In this document: positions 8,951 to 64,000 of the stretch, one piece after another
How the letters are laid out: each line of letters starts with the position of its first letter
Numbering within the stretch: the stretch's first letter is position 1
Origin: Phoronis australis
Lineage: Eukaryota > Animalia > Phoronida
Length of the DNA: 64,000 nucleotides
Assembly (NCBI GenBank): GCA_002633005.1
Contig: NMRA01000581.1
Location: 158,762-222,761, forward strand
Direction: 5' to 3'
Notes under the pieces: model-generated
What the model was told of the DNA's origin: nothing
Databases searched by the model: none
The model's input: only the letters and a program-made list of their open reading frames with translations
Translations under genes and position numbers: made by a program

Positions 8951-9078
8951 ATAAATACACAAAACGTACCGAGAATGGCCTACATGAAATAATATACCAC
9001 GGTCTCGGTCGATACGCGGAATAATGTCTCGTGGGGTATTACTTCATGTACGCCAATCGAGGTACGTTTTGTATTTAT
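8951..9078. repeat. Imperfect ~50-bp inverted repeat (hairpin); also at 37428-37555 and 63645-63772
   Basis: ataaatacacaaaacgtacc...tacatgaaataatataccacg pairs with cgtggggtattacttcatgta...ggtacgttttgtatttat across a ~28-nt spacer. Confidence 0.75.
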
Positions 9079-21000: not shown

Positions 21001-21374
21001 GAATTTTTTCGCCGAGTGATGGGAAAATCTATCCCCCGGTCACCATCAATAGCACCCCGAAAGTTCTCATAGGCCCTGTCTCAAGTAGCATTTTCTGCTC
21101 GTTCAAATTGTCACCTGTGTGGTTAGGTGATTTGATCTTCGAAGAGAAATTTTCAATCATCAGAATTTTTTTAACTCCGGTGGGGAAGGATTTCGCGTGA
21201 ATTTTAAATATTTTTGAGAGAGGAATAGGGAGGATGTTCAGCCCCAAAATCGAGAGATTGAGGGCCCTGTCCTTTATTGAAAGAAAAATGCATAATGTTC
21301 CAACCTGGAGTCTTGAAAACACAGCCTGGCTGGCCGAAGATTCTCCGGTTGTTGCTATGATGCTCGGCAACCGA

Positions 21375-21515
21375 GAAGTGCGACAAAATGTGATCTAAAT
21401 TTTCGAAAACATTTATAAATTTTACACGGACATATTTCCCTTCGTTGCGGCGTCTGGCAACGACCCAACGCTTTCGAATCTCAACGTCCTTATTAGGGAT
21501 TGTAAAACAGACAGT
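21375..21515 (-). pseudogene. Decayed THAP-like zinc-finger fragment
   Basis: Translates as CFTIPNKDVEIRKRWVVARRRNEGKY...LSHF, resembling the THAP F-x-x-P-K-D...R-x-x-W...HF core. Confidence 0.5.
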
Positions 21516-22999
21516 TGAATGGCCGTGTTCTATCCGTTCGAGCTACGCAAAATACCACTACCGTATTCGCCGTAATAACCGCCCATGCCCCTACAAGCGC
21601 CCTTCCCCCACGCGTTTTCAGACTTTGTTGAAATAAGCGCCCATTCCATGAATGTGTACATGCGAACAATGACGTACTTACAGTCCTAAAACTCGGCTAC
21701 AGTAACGTCTACAATTTATCGAAAATTTGTGTACGGGTCTTCTTGACCACCAGCGGCACACCTACTGTACGTTTGTATTTAGCAGTTACTTTACACTTCA
21801 AAGTAACGCAGCGCTTCAAAGGGAACGCAACAGCGTTGCTACGCTCTCGCGACGACCGTGTCCCACTATGGCCTGACCTTTCAGTAGACACATCGACTGT
21901 CTCATGAATAAAAATAACTCGGTAATAAACGCACGTGGCCAGGAAGCGCGCGCTACATATATGAACCTGTCATCAAAGACATTAGTCGGGAACTATCCAT
22001 TCATGAAACGGGTAGCATAGCATCGATAAGAAATGAATATTGGCACTAATTTCCGACAATTTCTAATACTATAAAACATGTTTGCGTTATTTTTGAGATG
22101 GATTGTTTGATTAACCATAATTGTTGCTTTTAAGCCGAATATCCGATAAAATGACAACTGACAGTGAATGCTTACACACCATTACACCGAAAAATAACTG
22201 TCAGATACTTACGTACGCATCCACCTACACGGCGACTAATATGGGCCTTACCGAGACAAATGTCGAAAGTTTTTAGCACGAGATCGGCAAGTACTGAATG
22301 AAACACGCTCTGGTTTAGGCCTACTGCTTGTGCAAATTTCTTTAGACACATGTAACAGTAGCTAGTAAGATTGCGTGGCTCGGGCCAAAAGACGGTCTCT
22401 GCTTTGGCAAATGAACTCTGGTGACACGCACGCGCTCGCTTACTCGCAGACGAACTTCAAAACAAAGTCACGTGACGACAACATGTGTGTTCGTTCAGCA
22501 AAGACGCAAACGCGACCCAGTGGCAAAATAACCTTTTTTACTCTCGCGACATCAAGCGACCAGATAGCGGTTTGATGACATGCGTGTTAAAAGAATGACC
22601 CGAGTTTTCACAAGTGGAGGAGTATTTCATATAGGAAGTAAACACTTGCGGAGGTCGGTTTTCAAATTACACTGCATTTATATTCTTTGATAATTTTGTA
22701 AAGGTGCAAACAAAAATACTCCAAGTATATGGCCTTTGTGCTTATGATATACTTCGCATTTTGCCTAATATAACATTCGGCATAAGTAATTGGCTTGTAA
22801 ATTGCACACTTTATCTATTCATCAGTCTTACACAGTCGGTCACAAAGCCGATGTTTTGTTTATTTGACGCTGCATGGTTGTCAATACTTGCATTTGAAGA
22901 CAATGTGTTCATCAGATTTTGAATTTGTCAATGCCCCAATAACATGCAGTGCTGCGAGCACAAACCAATTTGCAAATGTGAGGAACTGGCCGTACTAAT

Positions 23000-23333
23000 C
23001 AGTGGCGGATCTATGATACCATGGCATAAGGGAGGGGGTCAACATGTTGCCTCGGGAAATTGTGCAAGGTGCGATTGGCAATTGCACGTGCGTAGGCGGC
23101 TCAAAAGGTGAGGGAGCCAGCCTGTGGAGGTGCACCTTTCGTTCAGGAAAATCTACCATTCGAAGGAGCAGCCACTACGCGGCAACCTGGACGTTCACCG
23201 CTACCGGTCCTACTTCCTGGACTCAATATTTCCTCACGCTCCGCTCTGTTGCTCTTTCATTTCGCTTGCGGCAGCTAACGGGGGGAAGGGGGGAGCGGGG
23301 CGGGCCCCCCTGGGCCCCTTAAATCCACCTATG
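23000..23333. mobile_element. hAT-type MITE with 5-bp TSD (CTAAT); paralog 58093-58418
   Basis: CTAAT|CAGTGGCGGAT ... ATCC(A/G)CCT(A/G)TG|CTAAT, with G/C-run subterminal sequence. Confidence 0.7.
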
Positions 23334-25019
23334 CTAATTCCCGTGAATTCTTAAGGTGTTTCTTAAGTCAAGAGGTAGTTCTTGTTGGTAAATGGAAATG
23401 TAATCCTATCAAGGTAAAAACTATAAGAACATTTTATAAGCGTAAAGCGAGGTCTTATTTCATTTCTTACAGCTAAGTGGTGTGCAATGAAGCCTAAAGT
23501 CAAAAATAGAATGTACATGTAGGCTAATTTCAACATTCTGAACACCAATAAAACTTAGTGTAAGAAGAAATATTGCATTTACCATCAGACAAAACAACAT
23601 AGAATTTGTAGTTTGCAGGTGATTCATTTTATTTTACATTGCGTCATGACACATAAGAACTATCTTTAAGGATCTTTATTTCTAGATATACAATATTAGT
23701 TAGCATTGATGAGACTTATTCAAAGCAGGCACCTGCAGAACAAACGAAGTCTCAAACAACTGAGGAAGAATAAAAATGATCATTGAATAATTTGAAATAA
23801 AAATCTCATACACACTGAATAGAGGACTATAGTCGGATATGGCATAACCTGACTTTTGAGAACCAGTTTGATGCCTATTACTCAGTGGAGAAACTAGTTC
23901 ACAAAATGCGCCACATCTGACTTAACCCTGTGTCTTATCCACGTGCAACTCACAATTTTCAACCTGTTGCAACATTTTGAGTGCAAATACAAATTTCGAA
24001 ATACATATTTTACAAATGTTAGACTTTATTATTTAGAAAGACAATGATGCCCACTATAGTGTACATTTTCAGAAAAAATTGTTTTGCAATACAAATAATT
24101 ACGTGCACACAGCTAAGAGAATGGCAAGTCAATGGGTAACTTGTTATTAAATAGGTGTAGCTTATAAATGAATGCCCCTCTGACTGACATCTCAAATAAA
24201 GTTAAACTTGTTTTTTATTGAACAACATACTTTTCCTTGTTCTGTGGATGTTGCTAAAGAGGGCTTCAAGCTATGCATTCAGCAGTGCAGTGATTGCTCA
24301 AAACAACCAACCACCTCCCAAATGAACAACCCATCCCCTCAAAACAGATGTATTTTTATCCTAAAATATAATTACAAATAATTTACACCAAAACAACAGC
24401 AACACTGAGTACTGAGAATGGATGTTTATTGTTATCAAATATTGACTACTACTTGATGCAGAGTATGTTATAGAACATCATCAGTTGTGTTGTTGTCAAT
24501 ACTTTCCAACATTTGAGCACTTTGGAAATAAACTGGCATCTAAACTGATGCGAAAATAATAAATAAGACCAGTAGGCGACGCAATACAACTGATCCATCT
24601 GAAAATAAAATAACTACTGTAAATTTACAATGATTGGTGAAATGCCTATAGATAAACAGTAATTATTAAACAACATTTTGTCAATGTTTAGTAGTAAACC
24701 CTGAATTCCTAACCCAGGTTCTTAGGAGTTTAAAACATCACCAATATAGTTCTTGAGTCATTTGAATCGGGAATAGATCATTTTCACGTGTTAGTACCAA
24801 GCAGGCCAATTGTAAAATACAGTCAACATCAAAGAGAAGCTGCAAACAAAAAGACTATTCCAAATCCTTAGAACAGCAACTAGATGAAAAAATACATAGT
24901 ACTCACAACGTAAACACCAAGGAAAATATGATGAATTGTGAATTGCAACCCACAACTTAACACAGGCAAAAAATTCCAGTGCTGTCCCCATCGAAACCAT
25001 TTGCAATACATATTATGCA

Positions 25020-35450: not shown

Positions 35451-38281
35451 TTTATTTTTAATTGTTATACTAAACAATGTTAATAGTATATTGGCATGCA
35501 TTATTGCAAGCACCCTTTCGTGTTCAATTTTAGTTATTAAACTTACGTCGTCAAATAATAATATACACTTTGGTTAGCTTTGAAAATATGTATTGTTTGC
35601 TTTTTAACTGTTCGAAAACTTGATTCCCCTCAGTGCTAGTCCGAAAGAGGCTTTTTGTAGTGCGGGCCAAAGCCTTTTTGAAATCAAACAAATCAAGTTA
35701 ATGGTTTTATTGATGAACACGTGAACCCTCTACAACGCATAGTGGTCGACTGGACCCCTAACTGTACCAAAGCAGTCACTTGTTTTGTTTGTAACCAACC
35801 CTTCATCGGACGTTTGACAACCACCGACTATCTTCCACTCATAGTTTATGGTTATTCTCGTCAGCCATATTGTGACGCAGAATTAGTACTTCATGTTTTA
35901 ACCAACACATCAACATTTGATATTGGTTAGTAGCGAAATTCGATGAAGCCTATCAAGGATGCAGAGCCCAGACACAATTTTGAAGGAAAATTGACCCCAC
36001 CATCCCTAAAACCGGCATGCTGTGTTTTTATTGGTCGTATTCTGTGAAGGGGGAGGAGGGGGGGGGGCGCTTGAGTCATGATTATTTTGTATTTTACAAT
36101 GAAACTAATCCATTGCCAAGTCTGTACAGGAGTTGACGATGAACGGTGTGAAAACAGTAGTTGACAAGCAGTAGAGAGTGACCTGTAAGCACTTAGACAA
36201 GGGCTATAAATTATTTTATGGTTCCTTGTGATTTACGTAGGTCTAGACAGACGCTGAGTGTCCCAATGCCCACAGTAGTTGAATTGAACTACACGCTAAT
36301 GTGTGTAATTTAGAGGTAAAATTTTCTTTTTGATAAATGTTTCACTAAATGCCCTACTGTCATTGTTGATTTTTGAGAAACTTTAACTGCAGTCCCTATA
36401 GACGTACAGACTTAATGGATCACAAATAGATAAAACTGACGAATAAGGTTGCCTGGAAAGTTGACGTTATCTAACCTCAGATTTTTGGAAGGTGTGACTG
36501 GGAGTTTTTTCAAATGTAGTTTTAATTTGCGATAGTATATTCGTGCGTCAGAAATGCGGTTTGAGTTTAAAGTCAAACATTCAAACAACGACTTGTTAAG
36601 GTTCTTTGGTTGACTTAAGGTTTAAACGTAACTTTATTCGTAGTTTGTCGACACAACTTGTTACACAAATAAACCAGAAAATTTTATTAACATAACGCAA
36701 ATCAATGACAACAGAAACAACAGTTTGATAATTTCAGGCAAATATTTAAACTGTAATTCAATGAATTTAATATATTTGATGATAGAATGCCGAACTTACT
36801 CGAATTTGTCAACATCGATTATTTTTTCAAAACAACGTTTCAATGTGCCTGAAGTTGCTCGGCTCGAGTTTGGAGAAAAAAACTCCAGAAATCCAAGTTT
36901 AAATGAATTGTTGTGATGTGCATTGAAACTAATTGTCACCGCCCATTCGATTACAATCTCCAAAAGTGGCGTGCCCAGTGCATTTTCAGGCAATAATCGC
37001 TGAAAGTTCAATCAATTTCCCCTCAAAACTAACAAACTTTAGCTTCTAAACAATTCAAGCGCAACCAAGAATGGCGAAAACAAGATATCATCACCTTTAA
37101 TCCAAAGACTTGAAACGAACACCTGGACACATGACCACCAAAGTTAACATAAATTATTCTTACACAATCCTGTTTTAAGTAGATTTTTAAATATTTTTGC
37201 TTCACATTAGCACCCTATGGGAGATCAGTTGAACAATGAACAGGTTTTATCCTGCCAAATAAACATGTCATATTAAAGTTTAGTCAAGACTCGACTCAGA
37301 AATTGACCAATCACACTCCATGAAAACTGGTAGTTACCGGGCCGCGTTGTCAAAATACATCAGATAGAGAACTGCTGATATATTTATAGTAATGAAGTAA
37401 ACAATATTTTTCCTTGAATAACCTTGCATAAATACACAAAACGTACCGAGAATGGCCTACATGAAATAATATACCACGGTCTCGGTCGATACGCGGAATA
37501 ATGTCTCGTGGGGTATTACTTCATGTACGCCAATCGAGGTACGTTTTGTATTTATCCCATACGCTTCGAATTCCTAAGTTTCTTAATTTTTTTCCGCAGA
37601 TTTTTTAACTACTTCACTCAATCTGTTCACGTGGCGGATCACACCCCATATGTATGTTCTTGTGCGTTAGATTGCAAGTTTTCTCTAGTAAAAGAAATAA
37701 TTTCAATGTGATGATTTATTACTTGAAAAGAGATAACAAAAATGAAAACACTAACTTTGCACTGAACTTCTAACATCTCCTGATAAAATAGTTAAATAAC
37801 AACCTTTGATATTGTAGTTACCGAAGAATCGGCGACTGAGTTGCAGACGATATAATATTTAGCAAATGAAAACTGAGACAGAACTGTCATATAATTAACC
37901 GTCCTGTTCCAGATGTTACGATTGGGCCTTTATTGCATGTTGGGTGTTATTTACACTGCAACAGTTGTATTACTTAAATTATTTTCCGAACGTTTGAAGA
38001 TCTAACCAGCTATCGACGTCGAGTCGACATTGCCCTACCTTTTGAACTTTCCACGTCAGAGGTCAATGTTGAAGAAGTACGAGAGATGAATAGAGAAAAA
38101 GTATTACATGCCCGTATTTCCCTCTACAGATTCAACGCGTATAGGATCAATTCATCTCCTTCAAACAATCTTGGTTGAATTCTATAAACGCAAGAATATA
38201 AACATTATTCACGTAATTAAAATTCCCGATTCTGTGAGTGTAGAAAAACACTAAGGTTCTGTGGATTACTGAGAAAGGACC

Positions 38282-41200
38282 TCATGGAAACTGTTTGGTA
38301 GAACATTCCGTTTCTTCAGAGGTTACAGTTAGGCTTTCACAATTTCGGTTTCCGGTTGTTTTATGTCTGCTGCCACGCCAACATCCGGCAGAGTACAAAA
38401 GCAAAGCAACGAAAGTTGCAGACGCCATAGAAACAAAAAGAAAATATATAGTATGCTGGGCACTATGATTTTGAAGCAAATATCCAACAATTAACTGAGT
38501 GGTTAACCCACCCATGGCTACAAATACGTCAGCGAGGGACGTCAGAACGCTGGTGACTTCAATGTAATGGTTTACAAAGGCTAGTCCTCCCGGAAATACG
38601 GGTCCGTACAGAAAAGCAGTAGAAATCATGACGCCCCATAAGTGGTATGTACTGTTTACCCCCACGTAACAAAAACTGGCAGCGAAAATTGTTGTACCAA
38701 GAAGAAACGGTAGCAACAGATACTGTACAGGAATACGAAAAGTTGCAATGGACATGAAAACCCGGCCGATAGAAAGTGCGAGGCTTTGCATGGCGTCCAG
38801 CCACGCGGCGTCTTGCTTTGTTAGTTTCAAGTTGCTCTCGACTGCATACGTCAACATGTAGGTCAGAATGGTTTCATCCGCACATTTGCAACTAAATAAA
38901 TAAAGAATTAAACAACAGCACATGAAGCTGCCATAGACACAGTTTCCGTCTGCGCACGAGCCCGGATATAAAAGATTTCTTAACGAAGTTGAATCACCGC
39001 GAGATCCAAGAGGCTTCCACGTCTTTTTTCCTGGTTTCTTGATTTGCAGCAACGCGCAACCAATAGACGGAAATAAAAGTGTCCCTGCAATAATAGAATA
39101 CGGTATTTCGATACGCGATGGTTTCCCGTATTCGGTGCTGTTGTTTGTGAAAACAGTGTTGGTGCCATTATTGCTGGTGTTGTGGATTGTGCCAAGAAAT
39201 GGTGACGCAATGAACGGAACGAGAACCATGGTAAAGGCTGATGTAGCGTACGCGGCATTCACAACTGTGCTGGCTCTTGTTGTCCAGTTATTCAACAATA
39301 TGAAGTTTCCCACTGAAAATCAACAAGAACTTTTAGTGAGTTTAGTTGACAGGTAATAACAATGCCAATAGGTCAACTATTACTAAACAACAATAATGGT
39401 GATATAACAGTAAAAGTATTATGACCAATATTATCATCATCGTCGACTGGAATAGGCACTATTTCTTTTATGTTGCTTGAAAAGGAATTTTACGATTTAT
39501 CATGAGAAAATTGTACTATGAGGTGACCAGAACCAGACGACCAGTTTGCAGATATTTTAAAGCGTTATTCAAGTCCGTGGCAGTGTTACTAAAATGAAGC
39601 CGAAATCGCAAACTTCAAACTGTAGAGTGCTTGTCAGCAGTCGACACAGGCGAAAATGTAAGCTCGAAAATACTAGTGATTGCTTATTATAGCATGCTCA
39701 ATCGATGAAAAGTTGTACATTTCCGTGTGAGGTTATTACGTACATTATACTGTCGTACATGTACTTAAAATGACGAATTGTATGGAATAAGCGCCCATTA
39801 TAGTGGGTTAGTTGACGTAAATAACGATATGAGATATGATCTCCGAGAGAACACTGTAACTGATTGGGACCGCGTCACTGACCTGTCGGTGATATGACAA
39901 GGTCAGTGCGGCTACAGAAAAACTAACAATCTGCCAAAATGAGTGACATACCAATCGTTCTACGATCACCCAAGTCAATAATTCGTTGGTGTCGCGATCG
40001 CAAAGTTGAACAACTGAGTATTGGCCATCACAATTTCATTTTTCAATTTGGTATTGAAAATGGAATTCTTAATGGTTAGTTGATATTTTATATTTCCAAA
40101 TTCATATTCAAAACGAAAATTGAAAATTGAAACATGGATACGTTTCCAAATGGAATAAATTAATTTAAATAATAAATCGTCTATAATGTTTTTGACTCTT
40201 AACTGTTGTTTCATATTTCTATTCAAATTGAATCTTGGAATTGGAAACCAACACATGGTGTTCAATCCCACGAAAATTTTTTGTTAGCAAAGAAGGCTTT
40301 AACATATAATATTCTGATAATCGTAACACCTTCCGATTTGTTAAAGGAAACGAAGCAGTTACTCAACTGTTTTCATCACGAGATTTAATTTTTCATTACC
40401 CTAGCAGACGTCACCATTTAAAACTGCGTATCGCTCTCTCAAGTTTGCAAAATAGAAAGAACTCGAATTAGTCCTTTTACTCTAAATAAATGGTCTCACA
40501 ATATTCATTGCCGTGTCACGTTTCTTGCAATGGGACACATTTTTACGTTTGAAGAAGAGGTAACTATAAGGAAGGGTCCTAGTAGACCCTGCCAAAATGC
40601 TCACATGGCCAGTCCGCCCACGCTGAAACCTGGGACCCTAAGTACATGTATGCCTGACAGCCTCGGGACCGGGCATAATACATCTGCCACTGACTACACT
40701 TGAAATTAGATCGCTTAAAGTTTTGATATTAAATAATCCTTGTCAATCTTCAAATTGCAGAAATAAGTTTGAAAACGTCATACAAGGTCTTCCAGCAAAA
40801 ACATGATCACGACAATGATAACGACAATGACAATAATGATGATGATGATGATGACGACCACTACGACGATTGCAAAGAACTTACTAGACATGATTCCACC
40901 CAAGGCCATTCCTTGCACAAAGTATAGGGCACCAAACAAATCGACGTTCCGCACCCATGGTATCATAAAGGTACTGCCACCATAAACTAGCGATATGACG
41001 CTCAGTCCCATGTCGTCATAGTTTGGAAATCTTCCCAACAAATATCCCGTCATCAAAGATCCAACCACTCTGCCGGGATGTAATAGAGAGATGGCCTAAA
41101 ACGTACACAATTTCATGTCCTTGATGACATATTCTGAATATAAAAAAATAAAATCAAACGTTAGCGTTTTAAGAAAGTTGCGTTCTCACAGTCCACATGA

Positions 41201-52700: not shown

Positions 52701-54710
52701 TATTTTGCTGCGATGTGCAATAAGTCACATCTGGTTTAATGTTTTGATCAAGCATAGCCTAGGTCCAGGTGAGGTAGGGACTACCGGGACTAATAGTTGA
52801 TTTGTCATTGATCTGAAAGAATAATTGATTTTATCAAATATATTTTTTATTAAAATAAATAACTAGTCTTGTAATTGAATATAAAAATTACTCGAAAATC
52901 AATTCTGTTTTCTTGGTTTTAACAATTCTTACGTCTATTTGATGTTTCAAATATCAATCTGGACCAAGTTGAATTTTAAAATTAAAAAACCTAATTCGTT
53001 CGTCGAAAGTATAATCTTGATTAAGAGCTCAATTTCAGTTAACTCGACAGAGCAAGCATAGTTATCATGTTTCTTCAGGGGCCTCGTTGTCCGAGGGGAA
53101 AGGTGCCTATGCCTTCAGTGAGAGGCGAATTTTTTCGCCGAGTGATGGGAAAATCTATCCCCCGGTCACCATCAATGACACCCCGCAAGTTCTCAAGTAG
53201 CATTTTCTGCTCGTTCAAATTGTCACCTGTGTGGTTAGGTAATTTGAACTTCGAAGAGAAATTTTCAATCACCAGGAGAATTTTTAGACCACCGGTGGGG
53301 GGGGGGGTATTTCGCGTGAATTTTTAATATTTTTGAGAGAGGAATAGGGAGGATGTTCAGCCCCAAAATCGAGAGATTGAGGGCCCTGTCCTTTATTGAA
53401 AGAAAAATGCATAATGTTTCAACCCGCAGTCTTTTAAACACAGCCTGGCTGGCCGAAGATTCTCCGGTTGTTGCTATGATGCTCGGCAACCGAGAAGTGC
53501 AACAAAATATGATCTAAATTTTCGAAAACACTTATAAATTTTACACGGACATATTTTCCTTCGTTGCGGCGTCTGGCAACGACCCCACGCTTCCGAATCT
53601 CTACGTCCTTAGGGATTGTAAAACAGACAGTTGAATGGCCGCGTTGTATCCGTTCGAGCTACGCGAAATACCACTACCGTATTCGCCGTAATAACCGCCC
53701 ATGCCCCTACAAGCGCTGCCCACGCGTTTTCAGACTTTGCTGAAATAAGCGCCCAGTCCATGAATGTGTACATGCGAACAATGACGTACCTACATTCCTA
53801 AAACTCGGCTACAGTAACGTCTTCAATTCATGGAAACATTTTTGTACCGGTCTTCTTGACCACCAGCGGCACTGCATCGTTTGTATTTAGCAGTGACTTT
53901 ACACTTCCGACGCAGCGCGCTTCAAAGGGAACGCAACAGCGTTGCTACGCTCTCGCGACGAACGTGTCCCACTATGTGGTCTGACCTTTCAGTAGACACA
54001 TCGACTGTGACAGTCGATGTGTACTAATGAATAAAAATAACTCGGTGTTAAACGCACGTGGCCAGGAAGCGCGCGCTACACACATGAACCTGTCATCACA
54101 GACATTAGTCGGGAACTATCCATTCATGAAACGGATAGCATTGCATCGATAACAAATGAATATTGGCACTAATTTCCGACAATTTCTAATACTATAAAAC
54201 ATGTTTGCGTTATTTTTGAGATGGATTGTTTGATTAACCATAATTGGTGCTTTTAAGCCGAATATCCGATAAAATGACAACTGACAGTGAATGCTTACAC
54301 ACTATTACACCATAGATTATAGACAACAGATTCGCAACTCCGGCATATTCTTACGAGCTGAGCTGAACTCTCCTGACCTATCTGCTGCAGTTTCCGGTCA
54401 GTGTAATTTGACGAGAAATACTTGCATCTACTTTACAGTCCAAAACAGCGAAAAAACATTAATTCATATTAATTTCGGTATTGAAACGCTTTTCAGTCTT
54501 TCAATAGTAGAAGTGTTGGTATTGTGAGTACTTTTGGCTATGCTACTGGTAATTAATTTCAAAATTCAAACTTCGGTTCCGACCCTTTATGTCGTCTGCT
54601 TGCCCAATAGCAGCATAGTTATCGGACAGTTTTTGATTTACGGTTCACATAGGCCTACTGTTTATAAATCAACATTCTCAAGTGAGCAGTTCTTCTGGGA
54701 AGTGTTGAGT

Positions 54711-54726
54711 GGCCCTTAAAAGGGCC
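54711..54726 (-). promoter_or_regulatory. Histone-type 3' stem-loop (distal) with downstream purine-rich HDE-like element
   Basis: Minus strand reads CCAAC-GGCCCT-TTTA-AGGGCC-ACTCA-acacttccc-AGAAGAACTG, fitting the 6-bp stem / 4-nt loop SLBP consensus with A/C-rich flanks. Confidence 0.85.
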
Positions 54727-54751
54727 GTTGGTTGTAGGTATAGCGTGAAAT

Positions 54752-54767
54752 GGTTCTTAAAAGAACC
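54752..54767 (-). promoter_or_regulatory. Histone-type 3' stem-loop (proximal)
   Basis: Minus strand reads TCAAC-GGTTCT-TTTA-AGAACC-ATTTC, 10 nt after the TGA at 54778. Confidence 0.75.
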
Positions 54768-54777
54768 GTTGAATAAT

Positions 54778-55095
54778 TCAACATAAATCACACAGTATAC
54801 CATGCTCACTCAAGTACTGAAGGTCCTCTTCATTAAAGTTTTCATCTGGAAAGGTTGGATGAAAACAGAGGAGATGACAATATCGATGACAGTTGTAACA
54901 CCTTAGATAGATATCACCGTTCACCAACGTTGTCACGAACCCTGCATCGTTCAGTTCTTGTTCCTGTATCCACAAATAATCCTGAACTGTAGGAAAAAAA
55001 TGACAAACAACACAACGAATCAAATTTCGAAAATCATCGCCTTCGTACGATTCCGTGTTGCTGTCACCAGACTGATGTTCTTCTCCAACGTCCAT
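54778..55095 (-). CDS. Small intronless acidic protein with C4HC3 (PHD-like) zinc-finger spacing, 105 aa from the first ATG
   Basis: MDVGEEH...RCVVCHFF...VTTLVNGDIYLRCYNCHRYCHLLCFHP...ILCDLC*: CxxC..CxxC-x4-H-x2-C..CxxC. Confidence 0.7.
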   Translation of the reverse strand: MDVGEEHQSGDSNTESYEGDDFRNLIRCVVCHFFPTVQDYLWIQEQELNDAGFVTTLVNGDIYLRCYNCHRYCHLLCFHPTFPDENFNEEDLQYLSEHGILCDLC

Positions 55096-55202
55096 CGTAA
55101 AAAATCGACGTTGCAAGTGATGGAAACTTGTCTACGCTCTCGTCCTTTGTTTCTAACCTTTAACCCATTTTTTAATAAAGGGGTGTACTGTTTTTGGCTC
55201 AT
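55020..55202 (-). CDS. Basic 60-aa upstream ORF overlapping the PHD-like ORF (uORF or frameshifted N-terminus)
   Basis: ATG at 55202 about 55 nt downstream of a TATATA; K/R-rich (KVRNKGRERR); a T6 run at 55099-55104 links it to the PHD frame. Confidence 0.4.
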   Translation of the reverse strand: MSQKQYTPLLKNGLKVRNKGRERRQVSITCNVDFLRWTLEKNISLVTATRNRTKAMIFEI

Positions 55203-55253
55203 GTTGATAGTGCATAATCTATGGTTTTACAATGTATTAATAGTGTTAAATGC

Positions 55254-55421
55254 ATATATATGAACTGGTCTCATTGAGGTGCACAGCAAATAAATTAACT
55301 ATAACAAATTAAAGTTTTGAAAATATAAAGAGCAGTAACAGACTCCCTAAAAATTAGGCTTGTTTTCGAAAGGTTTGCGCCATTGGTGATCCGATTGGTT
55401 CAATCGCTTGCGGCGGGAAAA
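55254..55421 (-). promoter_or_regulatory. Cell-cycle-type promoter: E2F site, two CCAAT boxes and TATA
   Basis: TTTTCCCGCC (55412-55421), CCAAT at 55394-55398 and 55382-55386, E2F-like GGCGCAAA at about 55374-55381, TATATAT at about 55255-55261. Confidence 0.6.
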
Positions 55422-55592
55422 TTGATAGACCCAGTTATTGTGCGCGTGTACACTGTATCAATGCTTTGTATCTTATTCTTATTTGTCTAATCTGTTGATA
55501 CAGTAAATTTCCTTATTTATGCCCATCCTGATTTAACCCCGACTTGAGCTCCTTGGGTTTTACCATATTGGGGCTGTCCAGGGACTCACGTG

Positions 55593-55736
55593 CATGCGCG
55601 CACCCAGTCTTCAAAATGGGGGGCTCGAATTCCTGACGTTATGGAACTGTTGTTAACAAGAGAGCGGGCAGACCTTTTTGCCCACTTCGCCAAATGGGGG
55701 GGGGCTCGAACCCCCCCCCTCTGAGTTGCGCGCATG
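55593..55736. mobile_element. hAT-type MITE, 5-bp TSD ACGTG
   Basis: ACGTG|CATGCGCGCACCCAG...CTGAGTTGCGCGCATG|ACGTG. Confidence 0.75.
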
Positions 55737-56015
55737 ACGTGGTGCTTACTCGAATGAGTTTCATTTTAGCGGCTATTTCCAATTGTGTAGGTGAAGTAAA
55801 TTAACAAAGTGGATGATTATCATCACCGGTATTTCATCATTAGTATTTTTGTCGGCCTCTCAAGTTTTCCGTGGCTAGGGATTGTCACATCTGTAAGGTA
55901 GACGTGTTTCAGTGAACCTCCATGTTTGTGGCGTTATTTATACCTGACCAAACTTTGAAAAAGAAGCCCGCGTTTAAACCAGGAGCTGCATTGGGTGCAA
56001 TTTGTGTAGACGTTT

Positions 56016-56172
56016 CATGCGCGCACCCAGCCTCTAATACGGGGGCTCGAATCTCTGGCAAAGTGGACCTTTTGCTAACAAAAAGCGTGAGAACTAAAAT
56101 AAAAAACGGGGTGCTGCCGTATTGTGGACTTTCGTCTCTTTCTCTTGGACTTTTCCCCTGGGTGCGCGCATG
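56016..56172. mobile_element. hAT-type MITE of the same family, 5-bp TSD CGTTT
   Basis: CGTTT|CATGCGCGCACCCAG...CTGGGTGCGCGCATG|CGTTT (perfect 15-bp TIR). Confidence 0.8.
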
Positions 56173-56920
56173 CGTTTGTCTACGTTGCTAGTTTTTATAA
56201 AGGTGGGCCTGTCTGTAGCCAACTACGGTAAATTCATAAAAGGTCACGTGCAGTGCAACTCAAGTTCATTACAAATTAAAAATCCGAACTTTCAAACCGT
56301 TTGATCTGAGTTGACATCTCAAATCAAAATTATGAAAATGCCACATAAAAGTATGAAATTGAAAATTAGCACACGTCAGCTTCACGTCCCTACCACCCCC
56401 TTTATCTTGCTTGCTACCTCTTAGGGTTCATTTCCCTTGCTTCCGAGGTTTTTCGTTATTCTGGTATTTTCATAGACTGCAGCGTACTTGGCTAAGATGG
56501 TTCAAGTTTTGTGCGGCATACAGTCGACATAAATAATTGAGTATGTAACCTGCTGTTGAATTGCGGGATAGATTTTGACAGGTCCAGGTATTTATTTCTG
56601 AAGTATTAATGTAATCTTTATTTATGTTAAAGGTTTTACTAGCGTCCTATTTATTTGTACACGAATGTGAATTTGTTGAAATCGCTGATCCAAATCCTGG
56701 CCAAATCTGCGCATTATGCTGAGACCAACCGTCTGATCAGGGCCACTGAAGAGTAATTTGGTTAATTCGCTCACTAGACTATGGCTGAAGGTCCTCGTAA
56801 GGACAAGAGTTCACCAGTCACTACCATTGGAAGAAATTTAGCGGACATTTTTCGTCAAAAAGTTTACCAGATAGTTTTCATCAAAACGGAGAAAAGAAAA
56901 ATGGATTTGTGAAGACAGGA

Positions 56921-57142
56921 TTAAGTAGTAGGCCTACCAGAGCCTCTTAAAAAACACCCATCTTCGAAGTGACGTGAACAAATGTACAAGTTTTTTTTGG
57001 AAGAACAACTTCCATTCACGTCGACGCGAGAACATAACTTTTTCTCCCACAGCGGATTTTGGGGTCTCCGTACACTATGGAAGCTAACGCCTCTGCAATT
57101 CGCCTGCGTAGCCGAACAACCGGCCACACAGCAGCCGACCAT
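56921..57142 (-). CDS. THAP zinc-finger domain (N-terminal exon of a P-type transposase, or a truncated repressor-like product)
   Basis: MVGCCVAGCS...GVSFH...P...W...YICSRHFEDGCF, a complete C2CH THAP signature; no catalytic exons found downstream. Confidence 0.8.
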   Translation of the reverse strand: MVGCCVAGCSATQANCRGVSFHSVRRPQNPLWEKKLCSRVDVNGSCSSKKNLYICSRHFEDGCFLRGSGRPTT

Positions 57143-60037
57143 GATTAGCAGACGACGTACTTGCCGGAAATTACATCGGATAATTTAGCCAGGTGTCGCC
57201 AGTGAATAATGACGTAAGGGCTTGTGCGCAAGCTCAAAGATTTCGTCCATTGAAAGTATACGGAGTTGGCGGTCCATGCACTATAGTCTATGATTACACC
57301 GAAAAATAATTGTAAGATACTTACCTACGCATCCACCTACACGGCGACTAATATGGGCCTTACCGAGACAAATGTCGAAAGTTTTTAGCACGAGACCGGC
57401 AAGTGCTGAATGAAACACGCTCTGGTTTAGGCCTACTGCTTGTGCAAATTTCTTTAGACACATCTACTAGCTAGTTAATTAGATTGCGTGGCTCTGGCCA
57501 AAAGACGGTCTCTGCTTTGGCAAATGAACTCTGTGACACGCACGCGCTCGCTTACTCGCAGACGAACTTCAAAACAAAGTCACGTGACAACAACATGTGT
57601 GTTCGTCCAGTGGCAAAATAACCTTTTTTACTCTCGCGACATCTAGCGACCAGATAGCGTTTTGATGACATGCGCGTTAATAGAATGACCCGAGTTTTCA
57701 CAAGTGGAGGAGTTTTTATATAGGAAGTAAATACTTGCGGAGGTCGGTTTTCAAATTACACTGCAGTTGTATTCTTTGATAATTTGTAAAGGTGTAAACA
57801 AAAATACTCCAAGTCTATAGCCTCTGTGCTTATGATGTACCTCGCATTTTGCCTAATATAACATTCGATATAAGTAATTGGCTTGTAAAATGCACACTTT
57901 ATCTATTCAGCAGTCTTACACAGTAGGTCACAAAGCCGATGTTTTGTTTATTTAACGCTGCATGGTTGTCAATACTTGCATTTGAAGACAATATGTTCAT
58001 CTAATCAGATTTTGAATTTGTCAATGCCCCAATAACATGCAGTGCTGCGAACACAAACCAATTTGCAAATGTGAGGAACTGGCCGTACTAATCAGTGGCG
58101 GATCTATGATACCATGGCATAAGGGGGGCCCAACATGTTGCCTCGGGAAATTGTGCAAGGTGTGATTGGCGTAGGCAGCCCAAAAGGTGAGGGAGCCAGC
58201 CTGTGGAGGTGCACCTTCCGTTCAGTAAAATCTACCATTCGACTAAAAAAGGAGCAGCCACTCCGCGGCAACCTGGACGTTCACCGCTACCGGTCCTACT
58301 TCCTAGACTCAATATTTCCTCACGCTCCGCTCTGTTGCTCTTTCATTTTGCTTGCGGCAGCTAACGGGGGGAAGGGGGGAGCGGGTCGTGCTCCCTGGGC
58401 CCCCTAAATCCGCCTGTGCTAATTCCCGTGAATTCTAAAGGTGTTTCTTAAGTCAAGAGGTAGTTCTTCTTGGTAAATGGAAATGTAATCCTATCAAGGT
58501 AAAAACTATAAGAACATTTTATATGCGTAAAGCGAGGTCTTATTTCATTTCTTACAGCTAAATGGTGTGCAATGAAGCCTAAAGTCAAAAATAGAATGTA
58601 CATGTAGGCTAATTTCAACAATCTGAACACCATAAAACTTAGCGTAAGAAGAAATATTGCATTTACCATCAGAGTAAACAACATAGAATTTGTAGTTTGC
58701 AGGTGATTCATTTTATTTTACATTGTTTCATGACACATAAGAACTATGTTTAAGGATCTGTATTTCTAGATATACAATATTAGTTAGCATTGATGAGACT
58801 TATTCAAAGCAGGCACCTGCAGAACAAACGAAGTCTCAAACAACTGAGGAAGAATAAAAATGATCATTGTATAATTTGAAATAAAAATCTCATACACACT
58901 GAATAGAGGGCTATAGTCGAATATGGCATAACCAAACTTTTGAGAACCAGTTTGATGCCTATTATTTAGTGGAGAAACTAGTTCACAAAATGCGCCACAT
59001 CTGGCTTAACGCTGTGTCTTATCCACGTGCAACTCGCAATTTTCAACCTGTTGCAACATTTTGCGTACAAATACAAATTTCGAAATACATATTTTACAAA
59101 TGTTAGACTTTATTATTTAGAAAGACAAGGATACCCACTATAGTTTACATTTTCAGAAAAGAAATAGTTTTGCAATACAAATAATTACGTGCACACAGCT
59201 AAGAGAATGGCAAGTCAATGGGTAACTTGTTATTAAATAGGTGTAGCTTATAAATGAATGCCCCTCTGACTAAACTTGTTCTTATTGAAAAACATGCTTT
59301 TCCTTGTTCTGTGGATGTTGCTAAAGAGGGCTTCAAGTTATGCATTCAGCATTGCAGTGATTGCTCAAAACAACCAACCACCTTCCAAATGAACAACCCA
59401 TCCCCTCAAAACAGATGTATTTTTATCCTAAAATATAATTACAAATAATTTACACCAAAACAACAGCAACACTGAGTACTGAGAATGGATGTTTATTGTT
59501 ATCAAATATTGACTACAACTTGATGCAGAGTATGTTATAGAACATCATCAGTTGTGTTGTTGTCAACACTTTCCAACATTTGAGCACTTTGGAAATAAAC
59601 TGGCATCTAAACTGATGCGAAAATAATAAATAAGGCCAGTAGGTGACACAATACAACTTATCCATCTGAAAATAAAATAAGTACTGTAAATTTACAATGA
59701 TTGGTGAAATGCCTATAGATAAACATTAATTATTAAACAACATTTTTTCAATGTAGTAAACCCAGAATTCCTAACCCAAGTCCTTAGGAGTTTAAAATAT
59801 CACTAATATAGTTCTTGAGTCATTTGAATCGGGAATAGATCGTTTTCACGTGTTAGTACCAAGCAGGCCAATTGTAAAATACAGTCAACATCAAAGAGAA
59901 GCTGCAAACAAAAAGACTATTCCAAAGCATTAGAACAGCAACTAGATGAAAAAATGCATACTACTCACAACGTAAACACCAAGGAAAATATGATTATTGT
60001 TTTTTTAAGTGATATCCATTGCCAAATCTGTACAGGA

Positions 60038-62303
60038 GTTTTTTAAGTGATATATATTTATTGAAGAATACACAGAACATACAAAGAAATAATAATAAAC
60101 CCAGAAACCTCGAAGCATTATATCTGGGTTGTAAACAATTCATCAATGATACTTATATACATAGAGGTATATACAATTAAGTACTATCTATAATAAGTAT
60201 TCCAATAATTAGATATGCAATTACAGATATATAAAAGCAAAAATATGTACAGATTCATGTAGGGAAATCAGATGCAACAATATTGATAAACGGTACATAA
60301 AAATTTATTAACGTTGCTTAGGAGGAATTCGTTGAGAACGAAGTTGAAGTTTAGAACTATCATTCAATAATAATGTAACTCTAGTAGGGATATTATTACA
60401 AGAATTTAGAGCGTTAACAATTGATTGGTTTGCATTGAGTGCACGAAAGAGTGAGTCTCTCAGGTATTCGATGAGGGGACATTTGAAGAAAATATGAGGA
60501 TAAGATTGATGGTCACCACATTTACAGTTTGGAGAGACATTACTTAAGTTGTGCCTGAACTTGTCAGAGGTGAGGAAAACGCCACATGTTGATCTGTACA
60601 ATGCTATTTCGTTATCGCGGGTAAGGGAGAATTGAGTCAAGGGTGTTGAGTTATCAANATGAGGATAAGATTGATGGTCACCACATTTACAGTTTGGAGA
60701 GACATTACTTAAGTTGTGCCTGAACTTGTCAGAGGTGAGGAAAAGGCCACATGTTGATCTGTACAATGCTATTTCGTTATCGCGGGTAAGGGAGAATTGA
60801 GTCAAGGGTGTTGAGTTATCAAAATTATGAAAAACAGTTCTAAAGTTATTTTTATACTCGTAAAAGACTTGCTTTCCTTAACAGAGATTGGAAGAGAATT
60901 CCAGTTGTTGATGCACATGACTGTAGACCTTCTGAATGCCTGACTGAACGACGGGGGAATTGCATAAGGGGTGGAGGATCTCAAATCACTATGATGGCCT
61001 TGTCTAGTATATAGATCAAATATTTTTTTTAACAGACACATTGTTAACATTGTTTATTACCTTGAAAGTAAATGTGGTCATGTGAATATTGCGTCGAGTA
61101 GACAGTTTGGGCCACTTGAGACTATTCAAAACCTTAACACTATTGGATCCCCTGTCAGCTCCGGTTATGAGTAAGGCGGCTTAATATTGTAACTTCTCCA
61201 AATGTTGGAGTGCACCCGTATTGGCAGACTGATATATAATATCACAATAATCAATGTGTGGAAGTATAAAGGATTTGAACAAAACTTCTAAATGTGTAGA
61301 ATTCAGATGATGAGAGACAAGCTTAAGTGGGTTAATTAGTTCCTGAGTTTTTTGTACGAGCTCCCGAACGTGAGGGGTGAATGAGAGTTTTTCATCTAAC
61401 AGTATACCCAGATGTCTGTGCGACTGTTTTCTAGGAATGATTTCATCATTAAGTTTAAGGTCATAAGACGGGTCAACAAGAAAGAGAGCATTAATAGATT
61501 TGGAGAAGGTGAGGTCAACGCTTTTTTCTGGTTTAAAATTCATTCTTCATTCTTGTGACCAGTAGCTGAGTTTATTTAAGTCGTGTTGAAGCTGCAAAGA
61601 ACATTCAGGGCTGCTCCCTGCGAAGGGGTAAAAAGCGCCGTGTCATCTGCATAAAGGTATGTGCTACATGACAGGTTATCAGGAAAATCATTAATATAAA
61701 CCAAGAAGAGAAGAGGGCCTAATTCGCTACCCTGCGGTACACCTGCGTTTACAAATCGAGGAGGGGATAAAGTTGAAAGTACGCCGTCGACACGAACACT
61801 GTATGTTCTTTCGGAGAGATATGAGGTGATCACGTTTAAAAGATTACTAGTAATGCCATAGGATCGAAGTTTGTGAAGTAGAAGGTCGTGAGGGACACAG
61901 TCGAAAGCAGAAGCTATATCTAGAAAAATGGACCTGACACTCTCGCCCTTCTCAAAATATAAATGAATCTCATGTACTATTGCAACAAGTTGTGCCACGG
62001 TGCTGTTCCCACGCAAAAAAAAAACAAATTGACGATGATAGATCAAGTTGTTTTGTTTGAGAAATGTAAGAATACTTTGAGCAATGATCTTCTCGAAGAT
62101 TTTGGACAGGGTGTTAAGTAAAGTTATTGGGCGATAATTTGAAATTTCAGTTTTGGAGCCTTTTTTGTGTATAGGGACCATAATTCCATGTTTCCAAGAA
62201 GACGGATATATACCTATCTGAAGAAGTTTGTTAAACAGATTGGTCAGGGGCATGGTAATTTCGTTGGCAATCATTTTGATCATCTTACTGGTTATTAAAG
62301 CTG
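60038..62303 (-). mobile_element. 5'-truncated, disrupted non-LTR retrotransposon (CR1/L2/Jockey group)
   Basis: RT motifs NYRPITLLNTLSKIFE, FLDIASAFDCV, GVPQGSELGPLLF and YADD; C-terminal CxC..H..C; AATAAA plus a short A tail; TSD TCTGTACAGGA (60027-60037 / 62304-62314). Confidence 0.9.
60494..60822. repeat. 164-bp direct duplication around N60658; probable assembly overlap
   Basis: Copies 60494-60657 and 60659-60822 abut at a single N. Confidence 0.85.
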
Positions 62304-64000
62304 TCTGTACAGGAATTGACGATGAATGGTGTGAAAACAGTAGTTGACAAGCAGTAGAGAGTGACCTGTAAGCACTTAGACAAGCGCTATAAATTCTTTG
62401 GTTTCTTGTGATTTACAGTACGTATGTCCAGACAGACGCTGAGTGTCCCAATGACCACGGTAGTTGAATTGAACTACACGCTAATGTGTGTAACTTGGAG
62501 GTAAAATTTTCTTTTTGATAAATGTTTCATTAAATTCTCTACTGTCATTGTTGATTTTTGAGAAACTTTAACTGCAGTACCTATAGACGCACAGACTTAA
62601 TGGATCACAAATAGATAACATTGACGAATAAGGTGGCCTGGAAAGTTGACGTTATCTAACCTCAGATTTTTGTAGGGTGTGACAGGGAGTTTTTTCAAAT
62701 GTAGTTTTAATTTGCGATAGTATGTGCGTGCGTCAGAAATGCGGTTTGAGTTTAAAGTCAAACATTCAAACAACGACTTGTTAAGGTTCTTTGGTTGACT
62801 TAATGTTTAAATGTAACTTTATTCGTAGTTTGTCGACACAACTTGTTACACAAATAAACCAGGAAATATTATTAACATAACGCAAATCAATGACAACACA
62901 AACAACAGTTTGATAATTTCAGGAAAAAAATTAAACTGTAATTTAATAAATTTAATATATTTGGTGATAGAATGCCGAACTTACTCGAATTTGTCAACGT
63001 CGATTAGTTTTTCAAAACACCGTTTCAATGTGCCTGAAGTTTCTGGGCTCGAGCTTGGAGAAAAAAACTCCGGAAATTCAAGTTTAAATGAATTGTTGTG
63101 ATGTGCATTGAAACTAATCGTGATCGCCCAATCGGTTACAATCTCCAAAAGTGGCGTGCCCAGTGCATTTTCAGGCAATAATCGCTGAAAGTTTCATCAA
63201 TTTCCCCTCAAAACTAAAAAACTTTAGCAATCAAATGTGAATGACATCATAGGCTCAAATCACTTCCAAACAATTCAAGCGCAACCAAGAATGGCGAAAA
63301 CAAGATATCATCACCTTTAACCCAAAGATTTGAAACGAACACCTGGACACGTGACCACCAAAGTTAACACAAATTATTCTTACACCAGCCTGTTTTAAGT
63401 AAATTTTTGAATATTTTTCTGCACATTAGCAACCTATGGGAGATCAGTTGAAAAATGAATGGGTTTTATCCTGCCAAATAAGCATGTCATATTAAAGTTT
63501 AGTCGAGTCTCGACTCAAAAAGTGACCAATCACGCAGCATGAAAACTGGTAGTCACCAGGGCTGTGTTGTCAAAATACATCAAATAGAGAAGTGATTTAT
63601 TTACAGTGATGAAATAAACACTAATTTTCCTTATATAAGCTTGCATAAATACACAAAACGTACCGAGAGAGGCGTACATGAAGTAATATCCCGCGGACTC
63701 GGTCTATACGCGGAATAAGGTCTCGTGGGGTATTACTTTATGTACGCCAATCTAGGTACGTTTTGTAATTATTCCATACGCTTCGAATTCCCAAGTTTTT
63801 TTCATTTTTTCAGCAGATTTTGTAGGTACTTCACACAGTTTGTTCACGTGGCGGATCATACCCTATACTGTATGTACTTGCCCGTTAGGTTACATGTTTT
63901 CTCTACTAAAAGAAACAGTTTCAAATATGACGATTTACTACTTGAAAAGAGATAACAAAGATGAAAAAACGCTAACTTTGCATTGAACTTTTAACATCCC
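62304..64000. repeat. 3' flank of a fourth array unit (D); the next MFS copy is expected just beyond the window
   Basis: Collinear with 7677-9305 and 36121-37780, which lie about 500 bp before the stop codons of B and C. Confidence 0.85.

Follow-up and report, generated by a model that had tools for sequence, protein, structure and literature searches.

Histone-type hairpins behind a PHD-like gene in a likely P-superfamily transposon of Phoronis australis

Results

A stretch of 64 kb from the Phoronis australis genome (contig NMRA01000581.1), referred to here as the window, carries a non-autonomous DNA transposon, likely of the P superfamily. In it an uninterrupted open reading frame (ORF) for a PHD-like zinc finger protein is followed by two hairpins of the type that ends metazoan replication-dependent histone mRNAs, and by a purine tract resembling a histone downstream element (HDE). 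We propose that a transposon accessory gene has here been refitted with a working histone 3′ end, a reading that we regard as evenly balanced. In its favor stand two strict hairpins, the first only 10 nt behind the stop codon and in sense, with no histone coding remnant beside them. The same side is taken by the canonical geometry of the distal hairpin, the absence of AATAAA and ATTAAA, an intact and conserved ORF, a promoter-like cluster unique in the window, and a dip in RNA depth where the message is predicted to end. The positions of all features are collected in Table 1.

Two histone-type hairpins and a purine tract

The order described in an earlier, sequence-only reading of the window, namely a minus-strand TGA, 10 nt, a hairpin, 25 nt, a second hairpin, ACTCA, 9 nt and a purine tract, is confirmed by position, as is the CAAC that precedes each hairpin. 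Both hairpins consist of a perfect 6-bp stem and a 4-nt loop, with G-C at stem pair 2 and U at loop position 3, and they lie 41 nt apart (start to start) on the strand of the ORF. The strict 16-nt hairpin consensus occurs twice in the window, against 0.002 occurrences expected under a first-order Markov model. Both hairpins are present in the minimum-free-energy and centroid folds of the segment (z = -4.1), and none of 200 shuffles folds as well.

Both hairpins had been called canonical, which holds for the distal one: hairpin 2 scores 36.0 bits against the Rfam Histone3 model RF00032 (gathering threshold 34; E 8.3e-7) and is the sole gathering-level Rfam match across the window. Hairpin 1 stays under the threshold, at 22.8 bits (E 0.0012). 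Excerpts of a recent preprint give the canonical spacing between stop codon and 26-nt histone motif as 25-60 nt, place cleavage 5 nt after the hairpin and use AAGA as the criterion for an HDE (bioRxiv 10.64898/2026.10.14.759114). Measured in this way, the distance is 46 nt for hairpin 2 and only 5 nt for hairpin 1, outside that range. A purine-rich element had been expected behind the distal hairpin and is present there; the tract contains AAGA. Its GAAGA is predicted to pair, with one G-U, with the conserved U7 box UCUUU given in excerpts of PMC5054213, a general box and not that of this species' U7. Canonical spacing together with a purine-rich element is found at the distal hairpin only, and judging from this geometry cleavage would likely fall after 54706, behind hairpin 2. 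Neither AATAAA nor ATTAAA occurs in the 466 nt between the stop codon and the end of the terminal inverted repeat (TIR) of the element.

The stems differ by TT/AA versus CC/GG. This difference, earlier taken as compensatory change under selection, is real; the selection argument is weak, because the alignment of the flanks does not demonstrate that the two hairpin units are duplicates. Outside the 16-mers, 13 of 25 positions match, and the alignment of the 3′ flanks of the two hairpins is at chance level, an equally high score being reached by 28% of 5000 shuffles. Since palindromes can, moreover, change in pairs through template switching, we rejected compensatory change as proof of selection.

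An unnamed PHD-like family in two unrelated transposon types

The ORF behind which the hairpins lie had been described as intronless and not a histone, and both statements stand for the coding part: it is uninterrupted, conserved and PHD-like, and no histone family match was found for it or in the six frames of the element. It is intact in a copy whose transposase is deleted. A full HMMER scan gave eight matches, one of which (P0009, 958 aa) fell in a repetitive region and was set aside, and a profile search retained 17 of 565 candidates, none with an informative name. At 30-41% identity, this family aligns in its S(D/N)TES motif as well as in the first CxxC and the remaining six ligands, and the window protein keeps all eight zinc ligands in the PHD-type Cys4-His-Cys3 order. 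Because the eight ligands and the N-terminal motif are conserved at this identity, the exon is coding over its full length, and the family makes no use of an acceptor-like tract within the ORF. We therefore rejected the idea that coding truly begins at an internal splice acceptor near 54990, as this would delete conserved ligands.

The assignment to PHD fingers draws on several searches. The window protein scores 10.1 bits against the Pfam PHD model, under the cutoff of 24; across the family, at E up to 0.5, PF22908 matches 13 of the 17 members (best 3.2e-7) and PF00628 matches 12 (best 0.0027). Foldseek with the predicted structure of the window protein (pLDDT 79) gave MLL3 PHD6 as its best match, at a background-level score (E 0.11). 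A VIA structure search reached a best Z of 4.7, likewise in the background range (root-mean-square deviation 2.6, 59 aligned residues), and 13 of its top 14 titles name PHD. NCBIfam gave no match (0 of 5), a sequence search of the PDB found nothing below E 0.05 (best, an SLX1 RING-like domain and KMT2D), and an Atlas search for the ORF gave leads only, at or below 0.90. Readers of H3K4me3 typically carry a Trp two residues before the His; the window protein has a Tyr at that position. Whether of this or another kind, reading of histone tails by this protein is conceivable.

Near-identical cluster members of P0004 and P0025 lie on several large contigs, as expected of transposon genes; P0007, P0025, P0032 and P0033 are on contigs of 0.4-2.6 Mb. 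No relative was found in three scans of viral contigs or in prokaryote genomes; the hairpin pattern is likewise absent from viral contigs. Longer fused forms of the protein number 0 among 3868 candidates, which is weak evidence. One metagenome scan yielded, from 172 pattern matches, five homologous loci (L001-L005), which lie in two metagenome assemblies. As L002-L004 are near-copies (84-99%), the five represent three independent element types. In all five loci the PHD-like ORF lies directly upstream of a DUF7869-type transposase: in L002 and L004 the ATG of a long ORF follows 2 nt past the PHD stop, the downstream product of L004 matches DUF7869 above the cutoff, L001 and L003 have homologous DNA downstream, and L005 retains, by eye, remains of the same transposase N-terminus. 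This transposase presumably resembles Sola1. An apparent two-ORF layout, with the PHD-like ORF just ahead of the transposase, is seen at L001:826-1152, L002:1836-4003 and L004:1-2462, in at least three element types, and a GC-rich palindromic insert of ~180 bp breaks the transposase ORF at L002:4040-4217.

In a tree of 17 rows, built with P0001, P0005, P0006, P0008 and near-copies left out, the window protein pairs with P0002, with support, and a long branch sets the two apart from the transposase-linked clade. The tree test neither shows nor rejects one short-tailed clade that also takes in P0007/P0025 (p-AU 0.295). That one unnamed PHD-like family occurs in two unrelated transposon types is a lesser result, and it does not depend on what the hairpins do.

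The carrier transposon

The earlier description of the ORF as transposon cargo is borne out by an empty site, TIRs and a target-site duplication. The insertion is missing from a tandem paralogue: 51496-54311 matches 19425-22188 and 57293-59994 matches 22181-24932, and the tandem MFS-transporter units of the window serve as an internal control for it. TIRs and duplication were judged on this one insertion site. A THAP-domain remnant stands at the 5′ end of the element, on the same strand as the PHD-like ORF; it likely represents exon 1 of a transposase now deleted, and a possible GT donor lies near its end, at ~56937. No transposase catalytic domain (DDE with D(2)H) is found in six read-through frames of the element. 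Because it is absent from the paralogue, has TIRs, a 7-bp duplication and a THAP remnant, and is without a transposase, the element is likely a non-autonomous transposon of the P superfamily. We infer the superfamily, since the transposase is missing from this copy; the THAP domain is not unique to P elements.

The element belongs to a dispersed family, as indicated by reads of three raw RNA runs from 2026 with the same species label (X8, X9 and X10; ~18-19% of each was compared, at 88% likeness). The precise empty-site joint 54304>57294 occurs in 96, 88 and 43 reads of X8, X9 and X10, respectively. Behind 57292 the reads continue into many differing flanks (142 and 154 reads, agreement 0.46-0.49), and internally deleted derivatives with the joints 54537>57124 and 54338>57126 have lost the hairpins along with the ORF.

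The hairpins stand ~390 nt from the TIR, close to the element's 3′ end and on the strand of both the THAP and the PHD ORFs, and could also serve the element as a whole. They would then end any sense transcript, be it of the THAP transposase or read-through host RNA, without poly(A), limiting read-through into host genes or removing RNA after S phase, and would not time the PHD protein. We think such an element terminator improbable, given that hairpin 2 is suitably spaced for the PHD stop codon and that the internally deleted derivatives lose hairpins and ORF together.

Two nested MITEs (miniature inverted-repeat transposable elements) lie between the THAP remnant and the PHD-like ORF and, judging from read depth, are of high copy number. 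At 55214-55223, inside the element, the left TIR's first 10 bases recur in inverted orientation; since short inverted repeats thus bracket the ORF and hairpins (54311-55223), this part might move as a sub-element. Over 54200-57400, A>G differences in the reads exceed other transitions in X8 (99 vs 52-63) and X9 (89 vs 49-62), and not in X10, possibly owing to adenosine-to-inosine editing of antisense transposon RNA or to copy variation.

Table 1. Positions of the transposon, its gene and associated features within the window
Feature	Position	Strand	Remarks
Stop codon TGA	ends at 54778	minus	
Histone-type hairpin 1, GGTTCT-TTTA-AGAACC	54767-54752	minus	10 nt past stop, without own purine-rich element
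Histone-type hairpin 2, GGCCCT-TTTA-AGGGCC	54726-54711	minus	51 nt past stop, then ACTCA
HDE-like purine tract AGAAGAACTG	54696-54687	minus	14 nt behind hairpin 2 stem
Uninterrupted ORF, PHD-like zinc finger	54778..55095	minus	105 codons; acidic S(D/N)TES N-terminus, Cys4-His-Cys3
TATA-like box	55329	minus	
Predicted cell-cycle-type promoter cluster	55365..55420	minus	E2F-like TTTCCCGC 55420, CCAAT 55398 and 55386, CHR-like TTCGAA 55370
Non-autonomous DNA transposon, likely P superfamily	54311..57292	minus	2,982 bp; empty paralogous site, TIRs, target duplication
Terminal inverted repeat CATAGATTATAG	54311..54322	plus	12 bp, 11/12 identical to other TIR
Terminal inverted repeat CATAGACTATAG	57281..57292	minus	12 bp
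Target-site duplication ATTACAC, left copy	54304..54310		perfect 7 bp
Target-site duplication ATTACAC, right copy	57293..57299		perfect 7 bp
Empty site, single ATTACAC, paralogous tandem unit	22181..22187		
THAP-domain remnant	56930..57142	minus	Pfam PF05485, 33.9 bits (cutoff 23.9), E 5.5e-8
Nested MITE 1, CATGCGCGCA ends	56016..56172		flanked by 5-bp direct repeat; raised read depth, loose ends
Nested MITE 2, same CATGCGCGCA ends	55593..55736		flanked by 5-bp direct repeat; depth ~400, loose ends at 55593

A promoter-like cluster upstream of the ORF

Upstream of the ORF lies a predicted cluster that combines an E2F-like site with two CCAAT boxes and a motif resembling a CHR (cell cycle genes homology region). 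The motifs were picked post hoc, after seeing the sequence, and their definitions are mammalian; TTCGAA is a functional CHR variant in mammals according to excerpts of PMC4176359. Among the three strict E2F-like sites in the window, only the one at 55420 has at least two CCAAT within 60 nt. As a set of predicted motifs, the cluster fits cell-cycle control.

Evidence weighing against a working histone end

A number of results weigh against a working histone 3′ end, first of all those from the homologous loci. L001-L005 give no Rfam Histone3 match (0 of 5) at E up to 1, nor did a relaxed scan of the 150 nt behind their stop codons reveal any hairpin. The sequence-only reading had named homologous ORFs lacking the loops as an observation that would speak against it, and this is what these relatives display. 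They belong to the main clade, are ~38-39% identical to the window protein and sit in a different transposon. With none of the five carrying a hairpin, the histone end is specific to the window lineage or copy and is neither family-wide nor ancestral. The two nearest database relatives also look decayed, P0001 being without a C-terminus after residue 82 and P0002 without the first CxxC.

The RNA reads point both ways. None of the indexed runs that contain the stretch is recorded as RNA, which says nothing about its expression. In the three raw RNA runs all 30 bins across the element are covered, in both mate directions, and no pile-up of molecule ends is listed anywhere in them (library type unrecorded). 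Mean depth over the ORF is 58.2, 39.8 and 9.0, and falls to about half of this in the bin with the predicted end in all three runs (29.9, 24.4 and 4.5); it recovers in the next downstream bin (62.7, 54.5 and 17.3). A contig of X5, a run guessed to be RNA, spans 54669-54964, across both hairpins. Of the expected RNA signature, a dip in depth at the hairpin bin is thus seen and a discrete 3′ end near 54706 is not, with reads on both sides of the hairpins. The signal looks like passenger transcription of many element copies. Because the library type is unrecorded and a poly(A)-selected library would miss such a message, the runs neither show nor exclude use of the signal.

The main rival to the favored reading is an accidental capture. 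The element would be a composite formed by Pack-TIR-like gap filling, with the PHD ORF taken from another transposon and a piece of a histone 3′ untranslated region (UTR) added by chance; the hairpins would be inert and the RNA passenger transcription from host introns and UTRs. Consistent with such an origin are the homologues without hairpins, the fairly flat RNA depth on both strands with no ends, the mosaic build of the element, which contains two nested MITEs and has several internally deleted derivatives, and the decay of the nearest protein relatives. It is less easily reconciled with a join merely 10 nt behind the stop codon, in sense and free of any histone coding remnant, with two hairpins that are perfect yet different, or with an intact ORF that has a promoter-like cluster upstream. 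The long branch of the window protein is also distant from the transposase-linked clade, and the ORF is for this reason not a fresh capture from those elements. We consider accidental capture possible, if doubtful.

Further points against a working histone end concern the message itself. The HDE core is GAAGA rather than AAAGA. Between the promoter-like cluster and the start codon, five ATGs occur in ~270 nt, unlike the short leaders of histone genes. An acceptor-like AG stands 6-9 nt before the ATG in all three relatives' loci that include this region, and the window copy has there a T-tract ending in ACG; a leader intron in the window gene is therefore possible. Excerpts of PMC4604434 report that crosslinking and immunoprecipitation of SLBP in HeLa cells found histone mRNAs only.

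The acceptor-like sequences before the ATG of the relatives, together with the acceptor-like tract inside the ORF near 54990 and weak variant poly(A) signals (TATAAA at 54666 and CATAAA at 54591), also invite the view that the message is mainly spliced and polyadenylated downstream, the hairpins being a minor or vestigial end. An internal acceptor would, however, remove the conserved N-terminal motif and the first CxxC, and no minus-strand intron ends (CT..AC) occur among the 15 of 42 read joints listed. We give this possibility only a slim chance.

Discussion

Under the favored reading, that of an accessory gene refitted with a histone 3′ end, the PHD-like gene would have moved from a two-ORF arrangement into a P-like element, where it would need its own promoter and 3′ end. 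There it would have gained the E2F/CCAAT/CHR-like cluster and the histone 3′ signal, the latter probably copied from a histone gene. In its message the distal hairpin would be the binding site of SLBP and the purine tract the pairing partner of U7, and cleavage by CPSF73 after 54706 would take the place of polyadenylation; the rules for these steps follow the excerpts of bioRxiv 10.64898/2026.10.14.759114 and PMC5054213. Hairpin 2 would set the 3′ end, and hairpin 1, being without canonical spacing and a purine tract, could only add an SLBP site. Expression would be limited to cycling cells, or the message stored in oocytes, where transposition is heritable, and the protein might have a targeting or anti-silencing role on chromatin. 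Expression of the window copy as one unit may have ceased.

Taken to its full extent, this proposal would mean that an animal DNA transposon family has co-opted the SLBP/U7 pathway and an E2F/DREAM-type promoter for the non-polyadenylated message of a chromatin-binding accessory protein, made in S phase or in oocytes. We advance this wider claim only tentatively and think it rather unlikely. If true, it would provide a non-histone protein-coding client of the SLBP/U7 pathway, hidden from poly(A) RNA sequencing, and would break the rule that histone mRNAs are the sole non-polyadenylated mRNAs of animals. It would also mean that selfish DNA can tap the machinery of S phase and of maternal mRNA, through a class of transcripts missed by poly(A) sequencing. 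The case offers a sharp test, with a single predicted 3′ end (54706) and with the empty paralogous site and the hairpin-less homologues as natural controls.

Other features of the window

Between 641 and 64000 of the window, an MFS-transporter gene region is repeated in tandem, in at least four diverged units that share 81-95% identity; the products of the last-exon ORFs at 9806-10753 and 38282-39229 are 315 aa long and identical. A donor-like GTAAGT on the minus strand (57319-57324) lies ~25 nt outside the element and is also found at the empty paralogue; the insertion may sit at the start of a host intron. A broken reverse transcriptase of the long interspersed nuclear element (LINE) type occupies 61181-62283 on the minus strand (PF00078, E 4e-27), with a 165-bp tandem duplication near it at 60491-60820. 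A hairpin-like inverted repeat of ~115-130 bp recurs at the same place in three tandem units (63653-63766, 8951-9078 and 37428-37555).

Comparison with known systems

The combination described here is made of known parts in a surprising arrangement, the weight of which is reduced by homologues without hairpins and by the RNA runs, in which no discrete 3′ end is seen. No title or abstract in the literature searched describes the PHD-like family, or a non-histone or transposon client of SLBP or the histone stem-loop; subscription papers, Repbase Reports and supplements lay outside this scope and could describe the element.

With the P superfamily (P, 1360 and Galileo, as described in excerpts of PMC4168063) the element shares an N-terminal THAP domain, TIRs, internally deleted derivatives and a 7-bp target duplication, which in Galileo is 7 or 8 bp. 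It differs in having no DDE/D(2)H transposase and in its second, PHD-like ORF with a histone-type end, which appears in no description found. The transposons of L001-L005 carry a homologous PHD-like ORF of ~108-110 aa (the L001 product, P0018, is 39% identical). In them, unlike in the window, this ORF is the first of two, has an acceptor-like AG before its start and no hairpin behind it, and encodes a protein with a C-terminal extension.

Like known PHD fingers (PF00628 and PF22908; MLL1 PHD3, MLL3 PHD6 and Pygo), the window protein has the Cys4-His-Cys3 order, and its best structural matches are PHD fingers. Unlike them, it has ligands 2 and 3 separated by 34 residues that include a predicted helix, stands alone at 105 aa and scores below the Pfam cutoffs.

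The closest parallel to the 3′ end itself is that of metazoan replication-dependent histone mRNAs (RF00032, HDE, SLBP and the U7 small nuclear ribonucleoprotein), which excerpts of PMC4604434 call the only known non-polyadenylated cellular mRNAs. The putative histone-type end in the window differs from it by a non-histone ORF, tandem hairpins, a location within a transposon, a long leader with upstream ATGs and the GAAGA core of the HDE. The two are alike in the 6-bp stem, the 4-nt loop, the G-C at pair 2 and the U at loop position 3, and also in a distal hairpin at the canonical distance from the stop codon, a purine tract behind it, an uninterrupted coding sequence and the absence of AATAAA.

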